A stretch of DNA of 64,000 bases from Candidatus Obscuribacteraceae bacterium (lineage in GTDB: Bacteria; Cyanobacteriota; Vampirovibrionia; Obscuribacterales; Obscuribacteraceae): the NCBI GenBank assembly GCA_044226015.1, contig JBGAHS010000002.1, positions 39,029 through 103,028 on the forward strand, written 5' to 3'. Made by a program: the position numbers and the translations under genes. The notes beneath the pieces are model-generated. The model was given only the letters and a program-made list of their open reading frames with translations. It was not told the DNA's origin and searched no databases. Of this stretch, positions 44,357-48,274 are shown one piece after another (the first letter of the stretch is position 1; each line of letters begins with the position of its first letter).

Positions 44357-45400
44357 GTGCTGAAATCGGCTCGAACAAACAGCATTAATAAGGCCGTATT
44401 CAGATTCTCACTCTTGCTCGCGTTGATTAGCATCGCGCCTTTCGCTATCACAGGCTGCAGCACCAGAACAGAGAATGATGAACCCGAGCCCGATGATACA
44501 CCTGTGCCGGCTAACGTTGAGACTTTGGTAAAAAAACGCGGCGACTACCTGAGCTTTTCAGTAGATGAACACACTAATGTTCCTATTAAATGGACTAAGA
44601 AAGGTCCTTTGACAGTTTACTTTCATCCGGTTTCGAACGATGTCGAAAGCTACCGCCCCAAGATGCAATTGATTATGCACACAGCTCTGGCGAGTTGGAC
44701 GAAAAAGACAAATGGTGCTGTACGATTTCAAATTGTGAAACAGCTTCCGGCTGACATCGAGATAAAGTATTTGGATTTCCCACCCGATGAGTCACACTCT
44801 CCGGGCTGCACAGACCATGCGCTTGGAGTTACATATGGGCGTCACAACGACAAGAGAATCAAAAGCAAAGAAATCGTAATTTGTTTGCCACCGAACTCGA
44901 CCGACCATCAGGTTCTACATGTCAGCGAACATGAACTAGGTCACGCGCTAGGACTGGGACACAGTCCAATAGAAACAGACGTCATGGCTACACACATGAA
45001 TAACTCAGAACCAACCATAACTGACGAAGACGCGCGAACGGTTAAGCGCCTTTATAAATCGAGCACAGGGAAGCACGATGACGATCCGAAGTTTAACAAA
45101 AAGCGCTATATTCAAGATTGGAACGAGTTTGTAAAAGAGAAGATTTGCATACACTCGCACTCAGTTCACGACACCTGCACGCTGCGCATCGCAATTAATA
45201 ACACCGGAAGAATGTTCAAACATCAGGTTCTTGCCGGGGAAGACTATGGCGAAACTATTCTAGATGCCCTCAAGCGCATCAACTTTTTTCCGGCACCAGA
45301 CCTTGCGCCTGGTGATTGGCTGAGCCTCAAGATTAATGCATCGAAAGACCACGAAGTGACAATTAGTCAGATCGACCTGATGCACGAACAGATTCCATGA
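44357..45400 (+). CDS. matrixin-like metzincin lipoprotein with a possible TonB-C-like C-terminal module
   Basis: Lipobox FAITGCS. Zinc motif HELGHALGLGHS (about 44927-44966) followed by DVMA. The C-terminal 100 aa (TLRIAINNTGRMFKHQVLAGEDYGETILDALKRINFFPAP) loosely resemble TonB_C. Confidence 0.8.
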   Translation: MLKSARTNSINKAVFRFSLLLALISIAPFAITGCSTRTENDEPEPDDTPVPANVETLVKKRGDYLSFSVDEHTNVPIKWTKKGPLTVYFHPVSNDVESYRPKMQLIMHTALASWTKKTNGAVRFQIVKQLPADIEIKYLDFPPDESHSPGCTDHALGVTYGRHNDKRIKSKEIVICLPPNSTDHQVLHVSEHELGHALGLGHSPIETDVMATHMNNSEPTITDEDARTVKRLYKSSTGKHDDDPKFNKKRYIQDWNEFVKEKICIHSHSVHDTCTLRIAINNTGRMFKHQVLAGEDYGETILDALKRINFFPAPDLAPGDWLSLKINASKDHEVTISQIDLMHEQIP

Positions 45401-45705: not shown

Positions 45706-46506
45706 ATGCAATTTGACAAAGCTGAAGGGCAAAATCCTGAGAAACAAGAAGCCCCCCAACCGAATTTTGATGTGGTGAAGAGCTTCCAGGAAGATCAACT
45801 CAGTAAAAACACCGAGAAAAGCATAAGTTCAACCGACAAGGCAAATTCCTCTACTGACACCGCTAAGGACTCGTTGAAAGAGTTGAACGCGTCACAAATT
45901 GCCGATTTGATAATAAAGAACAAAGGCTTCGGAGCTAAAGGTAGCGAAGACAGAGACAAAATTGACAGCGCACTCGGAAAAGCTTTCGATAAAAGCATGA
46001 AGAACCCCGATACGGGAAACCTTAGCAAAGATGAAAACAAAGACTTGGCAAAGAAGGTCAACGAAGAGTTAGCGAAAAAGAACTCCGACTTACGTGTGGA
46101 TTTCGACAGCAAAGGCGGTGGCGGTGGCGGTGGTCGACGCAGTGATGGGCTGAGTGAAAAACACCAGGAAAAAGATGGCAGCTTCAGTGTTACTGAAAAA
46201 GGTAAGCCCGTTGACGAAATTTCCATGCACGGCACAAAAGACACCGTTTATGACAAGAATGGAAAGGTTGTTGGAGAAAGAAGCTCAAGAGAAAGCGAAA
46301 ACGGTGGCAGCGGTGGCGGCTGGGGTAAAGGTCCAGAGCACAATTCTAATTCCGACAAATCCGACAAATCTGGAAAAGATGAATTCAAGCTCGATGACTT
46401 CATTATAGAAGATGGCGGCAAAGGCGGCGGCGGTGGCGGTGGCGGCGGCAAAGGTGGCGGTGGTGGCGGCAAAGGCGGCGGCAAAAGCTTCCCCAAGAAC
46501 GGTTAA
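45706..46506 (+). CDS. hypothetical low-complexity K/D/S/G-rich protein with poly-Gly/Lys tail
   Basis: GGGGA SD before ATG 45706. No signal peptide. GGGGGGGRR mid-region and C-terminal GGKGGGGGGGGGKGGGGGGKGGGK. Coding status rests on ORF length and strand context only. Confidence 0.5.
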   Translation: MQFDKAEGQNPEKQEAPQPNFDVVKSFQEDQLSKNTEKSISSTDKANSSTDTAKDSLKELNASQIADLIIKNKGFGAKGSEDRDKIDSALGKAFDKSMKNPDTGNLSKDENKDLAKKVNEELAKKNSDLRVDFDSKGGGGGGGRRSDGLSEKHQEKDGSFSVTEKGKPVDEISMHGTKDTVYDKNGKVVGERSSRESENGGSGGGWGKGPEHNSNSDKSDKSGKDEFKLDDFIIEDGGKGGGGGGGGGKGGGGGGKGGGKSFPKNG

Positions 46507-46594
46507 CCATTATTTGCCGACTCTTTGTTTCAGAACGGCTTGAAGCAAAACGGGTATGATCAGTACAGGCTCTATCTCCGGAGGGGGTGCGTCA

Positions 46595-48274
46595 ATGCGT
46601 ATTGGGGATTTACTGATCCAGGCAGGTTTTGTCACGCAACAGCAGGTCGATGCAGCACTCAAGCAGCAAAGTTCCGCTCGAAAGACTCCACTGGGCAAGC
46701 ATTTACTCCTGCTCGATTACCTAACCGATGCAGAACTTGAGCTGGTACTACAGGCTCAGCGAAAAATTGCGTTTACAACCATGACCGACCAGCTTGCCAT
46801 CGCTAGCTTGAAATACGCAAAGTTACATAGAGTAGATTTTGAAACCGCAAGCCGCATTGTTTTGAGCTCATTCGCTCAGGACTCCAGCAAGAAGATCACA
46901 CAGCCACTGCCAAAGCCTGAGCAGCCACAAACACCGAAAGCAGATTCATCTATCGGTACAACAAAGATAACAGGCTCAACGGCGCGCTTTTCATCAAACC
47001 CCGACCAGCTTCTCAAGCTTAGCGAAACAGCATACGCTGAAAAACGCTTCGAAGAGTCAGCTAAAGCGCTTGAAGAAGTCAGAACGATTTACGAACGCAG
47101 CGATGGTTTCTCTACAGACCTTTTGATTCCTGTATATTCCAGACTGGCAGAAATATACTCATCACTGGGCAAAAATTCACTTGCAGAAGACCGCGTTTTG
47201 AAATTGATCCAGGTCTTGAAACAGGAAACGAAGCTGCTACCTGGCTCGATAACAGCAATTGCACAGGTTGCCCATAATTGCTCAAGACAGGGGCTCAACG
47301 AGCAAGCAGACAAGGTCTACAAGGTGATTCTTCCGCTATGGGCAAAACTTTTACCGTTTGAACAATCACAGTTTCCGTTTTACTTGCGAGATGCAATCTC
47401 ATCTTCAAGAACCTGTCACAAAGCGACAAACAGAAATATAAGAATTGGCGAACTTCTCGTTGAAAGCAAGATTTTAGAAGCGGTGCAATTTCAAGAAGCA
47501 CTGCAAAAGAGCAAACGACTCAGACAGCCACTGGGCAAGGTTCTATCAGAATCAGGGCTAGTAAGAGTGCAAGACCTACGCAATGCAATGCGCGTTCAAT
47601 TGATGTGCAGAGCCGCAGTAATTCCAGTGGAATACGCAGCACTTACAGTCATTGCAGCATCTTGCGCCAAGGAATCAGTTGACATATTTTTCAAATCATT
47701 CTACACATCGTTTGAAAACCCTGCTGCGCTGCTGTTACCGGAACTCATTGAAAAAATGGATAAACTTCTTGTTCTCGAAGAGAAATTGGGAATCAAGAAC
47801 CCGGAAGTTGCATCACTCGCAGTAGAAGTTGCGGACATCTGTCTTCGCCGAAATGAAACAGAAGAGGCAGAGCTGATGCTGCGCCGCGCGCACGCAGTCT
47901 TCGCAGTGGAGTCTGAAACATACAGACTTGATTTGGCAAATACGTGTTACAAAATTGCTCGACTGCTTCAAGCAAAAAACAAATACGAAGAAGCAGAATT
48001 GCTTTTGATGCAATCAATGGAAATCAGGAACCGTTTGCTTGGCGACAAAGACCCTGAACTCGCGGAAGTATTAATCGAGCTGGGTTCATTGTATATCGGG
48101 CAGGGCAATTACCTTCCAGCAGCAGGTTTCCTGAAGTCAGCTTGGGCTATCATCGCCGGCAAGTGCGAAGCTGAGAAATCGCAATTTGTGCTCAAACTGC
48201 TCATCAAATGCTACGAGCAGATGGGAATTGAAAGTGAATGTAATATCTATCGCCAGCAGCTGCCAAACTATTAG
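46595..48274 (+). CDS. protein with two MshEN (T2SS-E N-terminal-like, c-di-GMP-binding type) modules and TPR repeats
   Basis: RIGDLLIQAGFVTQQQVDAALKQQ + SSARKT + PLGKHLLLLDYLTDAELELVLQAQ (about 46598-46759). RIGELLVESKILEAVQFQEALQKS + KRLRQ + PLGKVLSESGLVRVQDLRNAMRVQ (about 47441-47599). TPR/KLC-like repeats follow each module. The start is probably ATG 46595. Confidence 0.75.
   Translation: MRIGDLLIQAGFVTQQQVDAALKQQSSARKTPLGKHLLLLDYLTDAELELVLQAQRKIAFTTMTDQLAIASLKYAKLHRVDFETASRIVLSSFAQDSSKKITQPLPKPEQPQTPKADSSIGTTKITGSTARFSSNPDQLLKLSETAYAEKRFEESAKALEEVRTIYERSDGFSTDLLIPVYSRLAEIYSSLGKNSLAEDRVLKLIQVLKQETKLLPGSITAIAQVAHNCSRQGLNEQADKVYKVILPLWAKLLPFEQSQFPFYLRDAISSSRTCHKATNRNIRIGELLVESKILEAVQFQEALQKSKRLRQPLGKVLSESGLVRVQDLRNAMRVQLMCRAAVIPVEYAALTVIAASCAKESVDIFFKSFYTSFENPAALLLPELIEKMDKLLVLEEKLGIKNPEVASLAVEVADICLRRNETEEAELMLRRAHAVFAVESETYRLDLANTCYKIARLLQAKNKYEEAELLLMQSMEIRNRLLGDKDPELAEVLIELGSLYIGQGNYLPAAGFLKSAWAIIAGKCEAEKSQFVLKLLIKCYEQMGIESECNIYRQQLPNY

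Follow-up and report, generated by a model that had tools for sequence, protein, structure and literature searches.

Two MshEN_N-type modules alternate with tetratricopeptide repeat arrays in a candidate cyclic di-GMP receptor-adaptor of Obscuribacterales

A gene of a Candidatus Obscuribacteraceae bacterium raises a simple question: can a protein that shares the cyclic di-GMP (c-di-GMP) binding motifs of MshE-type ATPases, and nothing of the ATPase itself, serve as a receptor for this messenger? The gene lies on the forward strand of the stretch of DNA analysed here (the window: 64,000 nt of contig JBGAHS010000002.1, assembly GCA_044226015.1, i.e. C1:39029-103028 of genome G000, which amounts to 8.19 Mb in 13 contigs and is 92% complete). 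Its product, hereafter the MshEN-TPR protein, is a soluble, enzyme-free, stand-alone protein with two MshEN_N-type modules, each followed by a tetratricopeptide repeat (TPR) array. We read it as a cytoplasmic c-di-GMP receptor-adaptor devoid of enzymatic domain, and give this reading a probability of about 0.6.

The original prediction, made from the letters of the DNA, had reported two tandem pairs of a 24-residue motif in this protein. All four half-motifs read as quoted, separated by SSARKT (6 aa) in module 1 and by KRLRQ (5 aa) in module 2. We scanned them with the NCBIfam hidden Markov model (HMM) NF053729 ("cyclic di-GMP-binding domain, MshE-related"; 53 positions, cut-off 38 bits). The whole protein scores 68.1 bits in two stretches, and each module scanned alone exceeds the curated threshold: 43.4 bits (E 2.2e-11) for module 1 and 41.8 bits (E 6.6e-11) for module 2, both well out of the reach of chance. 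Sequence matches in the PDB are Vibrio cholerae MshE (5HTL, residues 9–61) and Thermus thermophilus PilF for module 1, and V. cholerae MshE (residues 8–64), PilB and the c-di-GMP-binding GSPII domains of PilF for module 2.

The Pfam model PF05157 (T2SSE_N/MshEN) gave no match with the MshEN-TPR protein at E up to 10. This does not count as evidence against the modules because PF05157 covers the C-terminal alpha/beta subdomain, which the protein lacks: on the PilB of the same genome (G000:C13:32943-35042) it aligns to residues 71–147, i.e. the C-terminal T2SSE_N1 subdomain, and leaves out the c-di-GMP-binding four-helix bundle. In the AlphaFold models the segment that follows each bundle is helical and not the alpha/beta T2SSE_N1; the modules are therefore not full MshEN/T2SSE_N domains, and Wang et al. 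2016 (PMC5013675) use the name "MshEN_N only" for such a protein. As predicted, there is no ATPase domain: PF00437 (T2SSE ATPase) does not match the protein, while the positive control, PilB of the same genome, reaches 421.9 bits. The PATAN model PF14332/DUF4388 attains 18.8 bits (cut-off 25) over profile positions 49–76 of 122 only, which belong to its insertion region and leave the PATAN core uncovered; the modules of the MshEN-TPR protein are free-standing and N-terminal, not inserted in another domain.

The full-length AlphaFold model is all-helical (mean predicted local distance difference test, pLDDT, 84.9) with a four-helix pattern in each module: helices 3–10, 15–27, 33–39 and 45–59 in module 1; 284–290, 296–309, 313–319 and 325–339 in module 2. 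With the whole model, Foldseek returns mostly TPR matches and is uninformative on the modules, so that a fragment model was needed. The separate structure search covered module 1; for module 2 the four-helix pattern comes from the full-length model. The model of aa 1–96 (pLDDT 88.7) has as its best match among 350,542 PDB chains the c-di-GMP-bound 5HTL (root-mean-square deviation 0.6 Å over 57 columns, 33% identity), followed by several c-di-GMP-bound structures of PilF GSPII-B.

The array that ends the protein scores 76.4 bits with TPR_12 (Pfam cut-off 30.1), matches the TPR of kinesin light chain 1 (KLC1) at E 1.7e-21 and has KLC1 and KLC2 as best Foldseek matches. Array 1 is degenerate: taken alone it gives 27.8 bits (E 2.9e-6), just below the cut-off, and it lines up along its length with the genuine TPR_12 arrays found in paralogues C3 and C7. 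The claim that TPR or kinesin-light-chain-like repeats follow each motif pair holds, array 1 being the degenerate one of the two. Four further proteins of this genome (five with the MshEN-TPR protein) have two modules ~270–290 aa apart. One of these paralogues (G000:C8:576285-578039) is 47% identical to the MshEN-TPR protein, the other three 23–26% identical with strong TPR_12 after both modules. When the two halves of the MshEN-TPR protein are compared by BLASTP only the motif region aligns (E 2e-4). Paralogue C7 made the duplication clear, its first half being matched at E 1e-18 by the second half of the MshEN-TPR protein. The protein is therefore an internal duplication of a (MshEN_N-TPR) unit. 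We claim no order for the duplication events, the family tree being rooted through very long outgroup branches that leave its root uncertain.

The limits of the gene and of its parts are given in Table 1. The open reading frame (ORF) as listed for the window runs from 46556 to 48274 on the + strand (572 aa). We took ATG 46595 as the true start because GGAGGGGG, resembling a Shine-Dalgarno sequence, stands 7 nt 5' of it and because the homologues begin in the same way: nearly all of the 21 full-length ones have the N-terminus MRIGDLL. No Shine-Dalgarno-like site was seen 5' of ATG 46556 on reading the sequence, and the closest database cluster is 559 aa long. Compared with its orthologue in the closest relative (locus L017) the gene has a ratio of nonsynonymous to synonymous substitutions (dN/dS) of ~0.04, a rough figure as dS is saturated.

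Table 1. Positions in the window of the MshEN-TPR gene, its parts and the gene upstream.
Feature	Coordinates	Strand	Description
Gly/Lys-rich hydrophilic orphan protein gene	45706..46506	+	266-aa ORF; neighbour
Shine-Dalgarno-like site	46580..46587	+	GGAGGGGG; sequence reading
MshEN_N-TPR-MshEN_N-TPR protein gene	46595..48274	+	559 aa plus stop
MshEN_N module 1 (aa 2–55)	46598..46759	+	RIGDLLIQAGFVTQQQVDAALKQQ-SSARKT-PLGKHLLLLDYLTDAELELVLQAQ
Two-helix extension of module 1 (aa 56–95)	46760..46879	+	AlphaFold helices 65–78 and 82–95, pLDDT >90
Disordered, poorly conserved linker (aa 96–132)	46880..46990	+	pLDDT <50 over aa 95–132; variable, gappy in homologue alignment
Degenerate TPR_12-like helical array 1 (aa 133–274)	46991..47416	+	Eight helices in AlphaFold model
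MshEN_N module 2 (aa 283–335)	47441..47599	+	RIGELLVESKILEAVQFQEALQKS-KRLRQ-PLGKVLSESGLVRVQDLRNAMRVQ
Helical extension of module 2 (aa 336–398)	47600..47788	+	AlphaFold helices 345–398; conserved block including KMDxLLxLEE
Kinesin-light-chain-type TPR_12 array 2 (aa 399–558)	47789..48268	+	KLC1/KLC2 match

Behind each MshEN_N bundle stands a conserved extension of two helices; together they make a six-helix unit of ~95 aa, and in many paralogues the extension ends in ...ALxxxGW. That of module 1 (aa 56–95) occupies the place of the alpha/beta T2SSE_N1 subdomain of full MshEN and is kept in relatives, the profile matches reaching position ~90. Since the profile matches include the extension in hundreds of representative clusters, there may be a separate "extended MshEN_N" subtype.

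To assess the binding sites we mapped the key contacts of 5HTL (R9, L10, G11, L25, L29, Q32 in the first half-motif; R38, L39, G40, L54, L58, Q61 in the second) on both modules. At these positions module 1 has R, I, G, V, L, Q and P, L, G, L, L, Q. It retains MshE R9, G11, D12, G18, L29, Q32, L39, G40, L54, L58 and Q61; L10 and L25 are replaced conservatively (by I and V) and R38 by P. Module 2 has R, I, G, F, L, S and P, L, G, L, M, Q: it retains R9, G11, L29, L39, G40, G47, L54 and Q61, carries I, F and M at three Leu positions and likewise has P for R38. A Pro at the first position of motif II seems tolerable because the GSPII-C domain of PilF, with P335 at this position, binds c-di-GMP with a dissociation constant (KD) of ~0.46 µM (PMC11731258). 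In an alignment of 22 family sequences (39–74% identity), 17 of the 28 key positions are invariant as against 63 of the 531 others (Fisher p 5e-9). Ten of the 14 key positions of module 1 are invariant, R2, I3, G4, L22, Q25, G34, L48, L52 and Q55 each being found in 22/22 sequences; in module 2 the invariant residues include G285, F299, P312, L313, G314, L328 and Q335. On this alignment no part of the family is better conserved than the positions that contact the ligand. We estimate that module 1 probably binds c-di-GMP, and that the chances of module 2 are slightly below even.

Several observations weigh against the receptor reading. Wang et al. 2016 used a relaxed pattern, [RKPN]hGxxhhxx[GAS]hhxxxxhxxxhxx[QNKRYWST], as a search aid with manual review and not as a definition. 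It fits one half-motif of the four: motif I of module 1 agrees at every defined position, as the original prediction had it, and the other three miss one position each (D and K at position 10, S at position 7). The D corresponds to the turn Gly47 of module 1, which is Asn in most of the family; the K replaces the turn Gly18 of module 2 in the clade of the MshEN-TPR protein, with G kept in 15 of 22 family members; the S stands at a core hydrophobic position of motif II in module 2. In MshE, replacing a turn Gly by Leu or Ile lowers c-di-GMP binding considerably (Wang et al. 2016, PMC5013675). The equivalent of Gln32 in module 2 is Ser, and S, A or T in all 22 family members. The PilF GSPII-A domain carries the motif and yet is a non-binder (PMC11731258). 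The margins of the two modules over the NF053729 cut-off are just 4–5 bits. The Foldseek E-values of the 96-aa fragment, 0.16 and above because the fragment is short, are not significant on their own, and the motif may be enough to lead AlphaFold to a fold already known. Finally, a conserved partner gene was sought for the subfamily of the window and none was found.

It is possible, although we doubt it, that module 1 is the only functional site and module 2 a degenerate pseudo-receptor kept for structure or protein contacts, a sub-case of the receptor reading in which the stoichiometry would be 1 instead of 2. The loss of the Gln32-equivalent throughout the family, the Lys and Ser substitutions of module 2, its lower HMM score and the precedent of GSPII-A all favour it. 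Nevertheless module 2 is still above the curated cut-off, seven of its residues listed above are invariant, and PilF GSPII-B, in which two key residues depart from the consensus, still binds c-di-GMP with a KD of 6 nM (PMC11731258). The stand-alone, possibly bivalent receptor of the original prediction is thus retained as regards the enzyme-free MshEN_N-TPR architecture, the scores above threshold and the fold of module 1; its bivalency is uncertain owing to the three deviations (S, K, S) of module 2.

That neither module binds, both being ligand-free structural or interaction bundles of an ordinary TPR scaffold, comparable to the N-domain of Xanthomonas XpsE, which is a non-binder, seems improbable. 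The three half-motifs outside the relaxed pattern, the replaced turn glycines and the small HMM margins speak for it, as does the remark of Wang et al. 2016 (PMC5013675) that binding has probably been lost in many MshEN domains. But the 5HTL contact residues are the best conserved of the family, nine of them in every sequence of the alignment; the model of module 1 matches a ligand-bound fold at 0.6 Å; and losses of the XpsE type (G11V, I19R, L29R, G40L, L54H, L58C, Q61V; Wang et al.) are not seen in module 1.

We therefore keep the receptor-adaptor as the preferred reading, and infer from it the following course of events. If V. cholerae MshE and T. thermophilus PilF are taken as models, each four-helix bundle would clamp one c-di-GMP between its two 24-residue half-motifs: the hydrophobic triads would stack on the guanines, the backbone amides past the RxG glycine would read guanine O6/N7, and the terminal Gln of the half-motif would contact ribose and phosphate. 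In the duplicated unit (MshEN_N four-helix bundle, short helical extension, kinesin-light-chain-type TPR solenoid) the bound ligand would stiffen the bundle and alter the presentation of the adjoining TPR groove to a partner protein, the whole acting as a c-di-GMP-gated scaffold. Kinesin light chains recognise short acidic peptide motifs in cargo adaptors through their TPR grooves; binding of acidic peptides by the groove of the MshEN-TPR protein may serve as a working model for the output side.

The relation to known systems can be stated as follows. With V. cholerae MshE (5HTL; PMC5013675) the modules share the 53-residue unit, the two 24-residue half-motifs and the four-helix bundle, module 1 corresponding to residues 9–61. 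They differ from it by the absence of T2SSE_N1 (MshEN_C) and ATPase, by P for R38 and D or N for G47, by the spacer of module 1 (6 residues, not 5) and by the presence of two modules per protein, each then followed by TPRs. The GSPII-A, -B and -C domains of T. thermophilus PilF (6F8L, 8PDK, 8PFA; PMC11731258) are full GSPII domains N-terminal to a hexameric ATPase, in contrast to the MshEN_N-only modules, alternating with TPR arrays, found here. By their catalogue entries (Wang et al. 2016 Supplementary Table 4), Myxococcus xanthus FrgA (MshEN-UNK-HEAT) is also a non-enzymatic protein that joins an MshEN-type module to alpha-solenoid repeats, and Cyanothece cce_1044 ((MshEN_N)2) also repeats MshEN_N without enzyme, but has MshEN_N only. 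The kinesin light chains (KLC1/KLC2; 3NF1, 7AI4, 3ZFW) resemble the C-terminal array of the MshEN-TPR protein, which is of TPR_12 type; they are eukaryotic and devoid of a nucleotide-sensing module, and the likeness is one of repeat type, with no shared function implied.

The fusions of MshEN or MshEN_N described by Wang et al. 2016 (PMC5013675) involve ATPase, glycosyltransferase, REC, HD-GYP, CheA, CheX, cyclase, kinase, Peptidase_M23, AAA_31 and TrxB; TPR occurs neither in the text nor in the supplement of that paper, and no alternating (MshEN_N-TPR)x2 is listed. Our literature search, which was incomplete, found no description of a MshEN-TPR fusion, the mentions of TPR concerning NfrA or the cited SgmX papers, and no paper on c-di-GMP signalling in Obscuribacterales. 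We class the MshEN-TPR protein as a receptor module of known kind that alternates with TPR arrays, an arrangement for which we saw no earlier report.

The family of the MshEN-TPR protein is small: the protein collection holds ~24 members of full length, and where an organism name is attached it is Candidatus Obscuribacterales. Among 151 sampled genomes of the class, searched at E <= 1e-40, three have it (two copies in this genome, two in a genome of the same genus, and one partial match elsewhere), and the family of the C7-type paralogue shows the same restriction. All seven further homologues tested with NF053729 gave two stretches each, at 67–85 bits. An exhaustive profile search with the 96-aa unit retrieved 3,103 representative clusters at E <= 0.001, 541 of them at E <= 1e-10; of ten clusters looked up, one carried an organism name, again Obscuribacterales. 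In the best 150 of the 3,103 clusters TPR_12 is present in all 16 two-module proteins (555–885 aa) and in 30 of the 51 longer multi-module proteins. Thus the fusion of MshEN_N to kinesin-light-chain-type TPR, for which the original prediction had suggested a survey, is recurrent among the nearest relatives of the module.

The genome that carries the window has a large c-di-GMP-making apparatus. We counted 35 GGDEF, 2 EAL, 1 PilZ and 0 ComFB matches, and 48 MshEN_N matches in 25 ORFs. The MshEN_N-rich ORFs include proteins of ~400 aa with three to four tandem units and one of 566 aa with five modules (examples of MshEN_N ORFs are C6:612087-613796, C9:456118-457338, C8:457559-458770 and C11:1101187-1102410; the units of the C9 protein are ~98 aa apart). 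When ten other MshEN_N ORFs were compared with Pfam, one was the PilB ATPase, several gave PATAN-type matches and the rest no match; over 14 Pfam-scanned MshEN_N proteins (the MshEN-TPR protein, four paralogues and nine others) only the PilB-type ATPase has a recognisable enzymatic domain. The maximum count of MshEN genes in Wang et al. 2016 was 22, in Myxococcus xanthus (PMC5013675). By our counts, genomes of the family to which this one belongs have 12–66 MshEN_N modules, the sister family 14, another family 9–10, the small-genome families of the class 0–3 and model cyanobacteria 1–3. Source names seen for these proteins are "tetratricopeptide repeat protein", "CRP-like cAMP-binding protein" and "hypothetical protein". 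MshEN_N-only proteins receive no MshEN call from Pfam because PF05157 aligns to the C-terminal subdomain, and this absent subdomain is probably the reason for such generic names.

The second copy in this genome and its relatives in L013 and L018 lie in a conserved run of genes: PPK2, Bestrophin_2, MshEN-TPR and HD_4 (G000:C8:574131-578680, L013:3809-8370, L018:3774-8372). The HD_4 gene encodes a stand-alone RelA/SpoT-type HD hydrolase of 207–213 aa (TIGR00691 positions 1–147, E 6.7e-26; HD...HDVVED motifs). The PPK2 and HD_4 neighbours hint at a link of c-di-GMP sensing to (p)ppGpp or polyphosphate metabolism. We considered the HD_4 hydrolase as a universal partner of the MshEN-TPR family and rejected it: it is absent beside the homologue of L015, whose context differs from both the window type and the C8/L013/L018 type, and from the locus of the window. 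By gene order, the second copy occupies the more widely conserved context of the family, and the window copy belongs to a small subfamily found with the gene discussed below only in the close relatives of the window.

The gene upstream of the MshEN-TPR gene encodes a Gly/Lys-rich (G/K-rich) protein, proposed at first as a partner or client of the TPRs. It has six homologues (seven clusters with that of the window), which share a core (IADxIIKNxGFG, VNEEL, GKVVGE), a FxLDxFxLED segment and three conserved Gly runs: GGGGGGG, NGGSGGGWGK and a GGKGGG...KGGGK tail. With a dN/dS of ~0.05 against the L017 orthologue, it is a real gene under purifying selection. The protein has a grand average of hydropathy of -1.25, and a hydrophobic segment was sought in it with none seen, in agreement with its description as leaderless. 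It does not end in the G/K run, as had been stated, the run being followed by SFPKNG; nor is the intergenic gap ~50 nt: with the start at ATG 46595 it is 88 nt. No family of Pfam or NCBIfam matches the protein, and no paralogue was found in this genome with low-complexity filtering on.

We then compared the loci of the G/K gene. In L017 it is adjacent to the MshEN-TPR gene, at a distance of 360 nt. In the more distant relatives L019 and L020 the order is aminotransferase (-), G/K (+), acetyltransferase of the GNAT type (-), amidohydrolase and phosphoribosyltransferase, without MshEN-TPR gene, and the G/K gene is separated from the GNAT gene by 218 nt and 3 nt respectively. The flanking genes of these relatives are orthologous to those of the window (55% and 45% identity over the full length). 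The G/K gene directly follows the divergent aminotransferase gene in three of the four loci whose upstream neighbour is readable, and directly precedes the convergent Eis-like GNAT gene in both loci without MshEN-TPR insertion. Since L019 and L020 keep this block without the MshEN-TPR gene, the latter and the matrixin gene (44357-45400) were inserted into an older block. The G/K gene is the older resident of the locus, and the adjacency reflects an insertion in the genus of the window. As to the matrixin gene itself (Peptidase_M10, lipoprotein-like), it is a lineage-specific insertion shared by the window and L017; L019 and L020 lack it at the orthologous position, where L021 carries a Peptidase_M23-TPR gene instead.

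The linkage of the two genes, which was to be surveyed, therefore recurs in L017 and is absent at L013, L015, L018 and G000:C8, most family members lying in a different context. Both genes are on the same strand with no + strand terminator-like site seen between them, and their co-transcription is possible; the acidic-hydrophobic FxLDxFxLED segment could in principle be a peptide for a TPR groove. That the two nevertheless form a functional pair, the G/K-rich protein being the partner or client of the TPR arrays, is very improbable, since the orthologous block exists without the MshEN-TPR gene, most family members have no G/K neighbour, the gap widens to 360 nt in L017 and none of the four remaining paralogues has a G/K paralogue nearby.

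It has long been noted that cyclases are numerous in many bacteria while recognised c-di-GMP receptors are few. The composition of this genome, with 35 GGDEF matches, a single PilZ and ComFB absent against 48 MshEN_N modules spread over 25 ORFs, bears on this shortfall. A bolder proposal, which we regard as speculative and unlikely, is that the Obscuribacterales, non-photosynthetic relatives of cyanobacteria, have in the MshEN_N-TPR proteins a major class of c-di-GMP effectors that is yet undescribed. The messenger would there work mainly by way of dozens of scaffold proteins free of enzymatic domains, and the two-module members would bind two ligands at different affinities, as PilF does, switching two separate TPR docking platforms at two c-di-GMP thresholds. 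If the modules bind, the MshEN-TPR protein and its relatives would show that c-di-GMP can act through ligand-gated TPR scaffolds, and would be a receptor set for an uncultured lineage.

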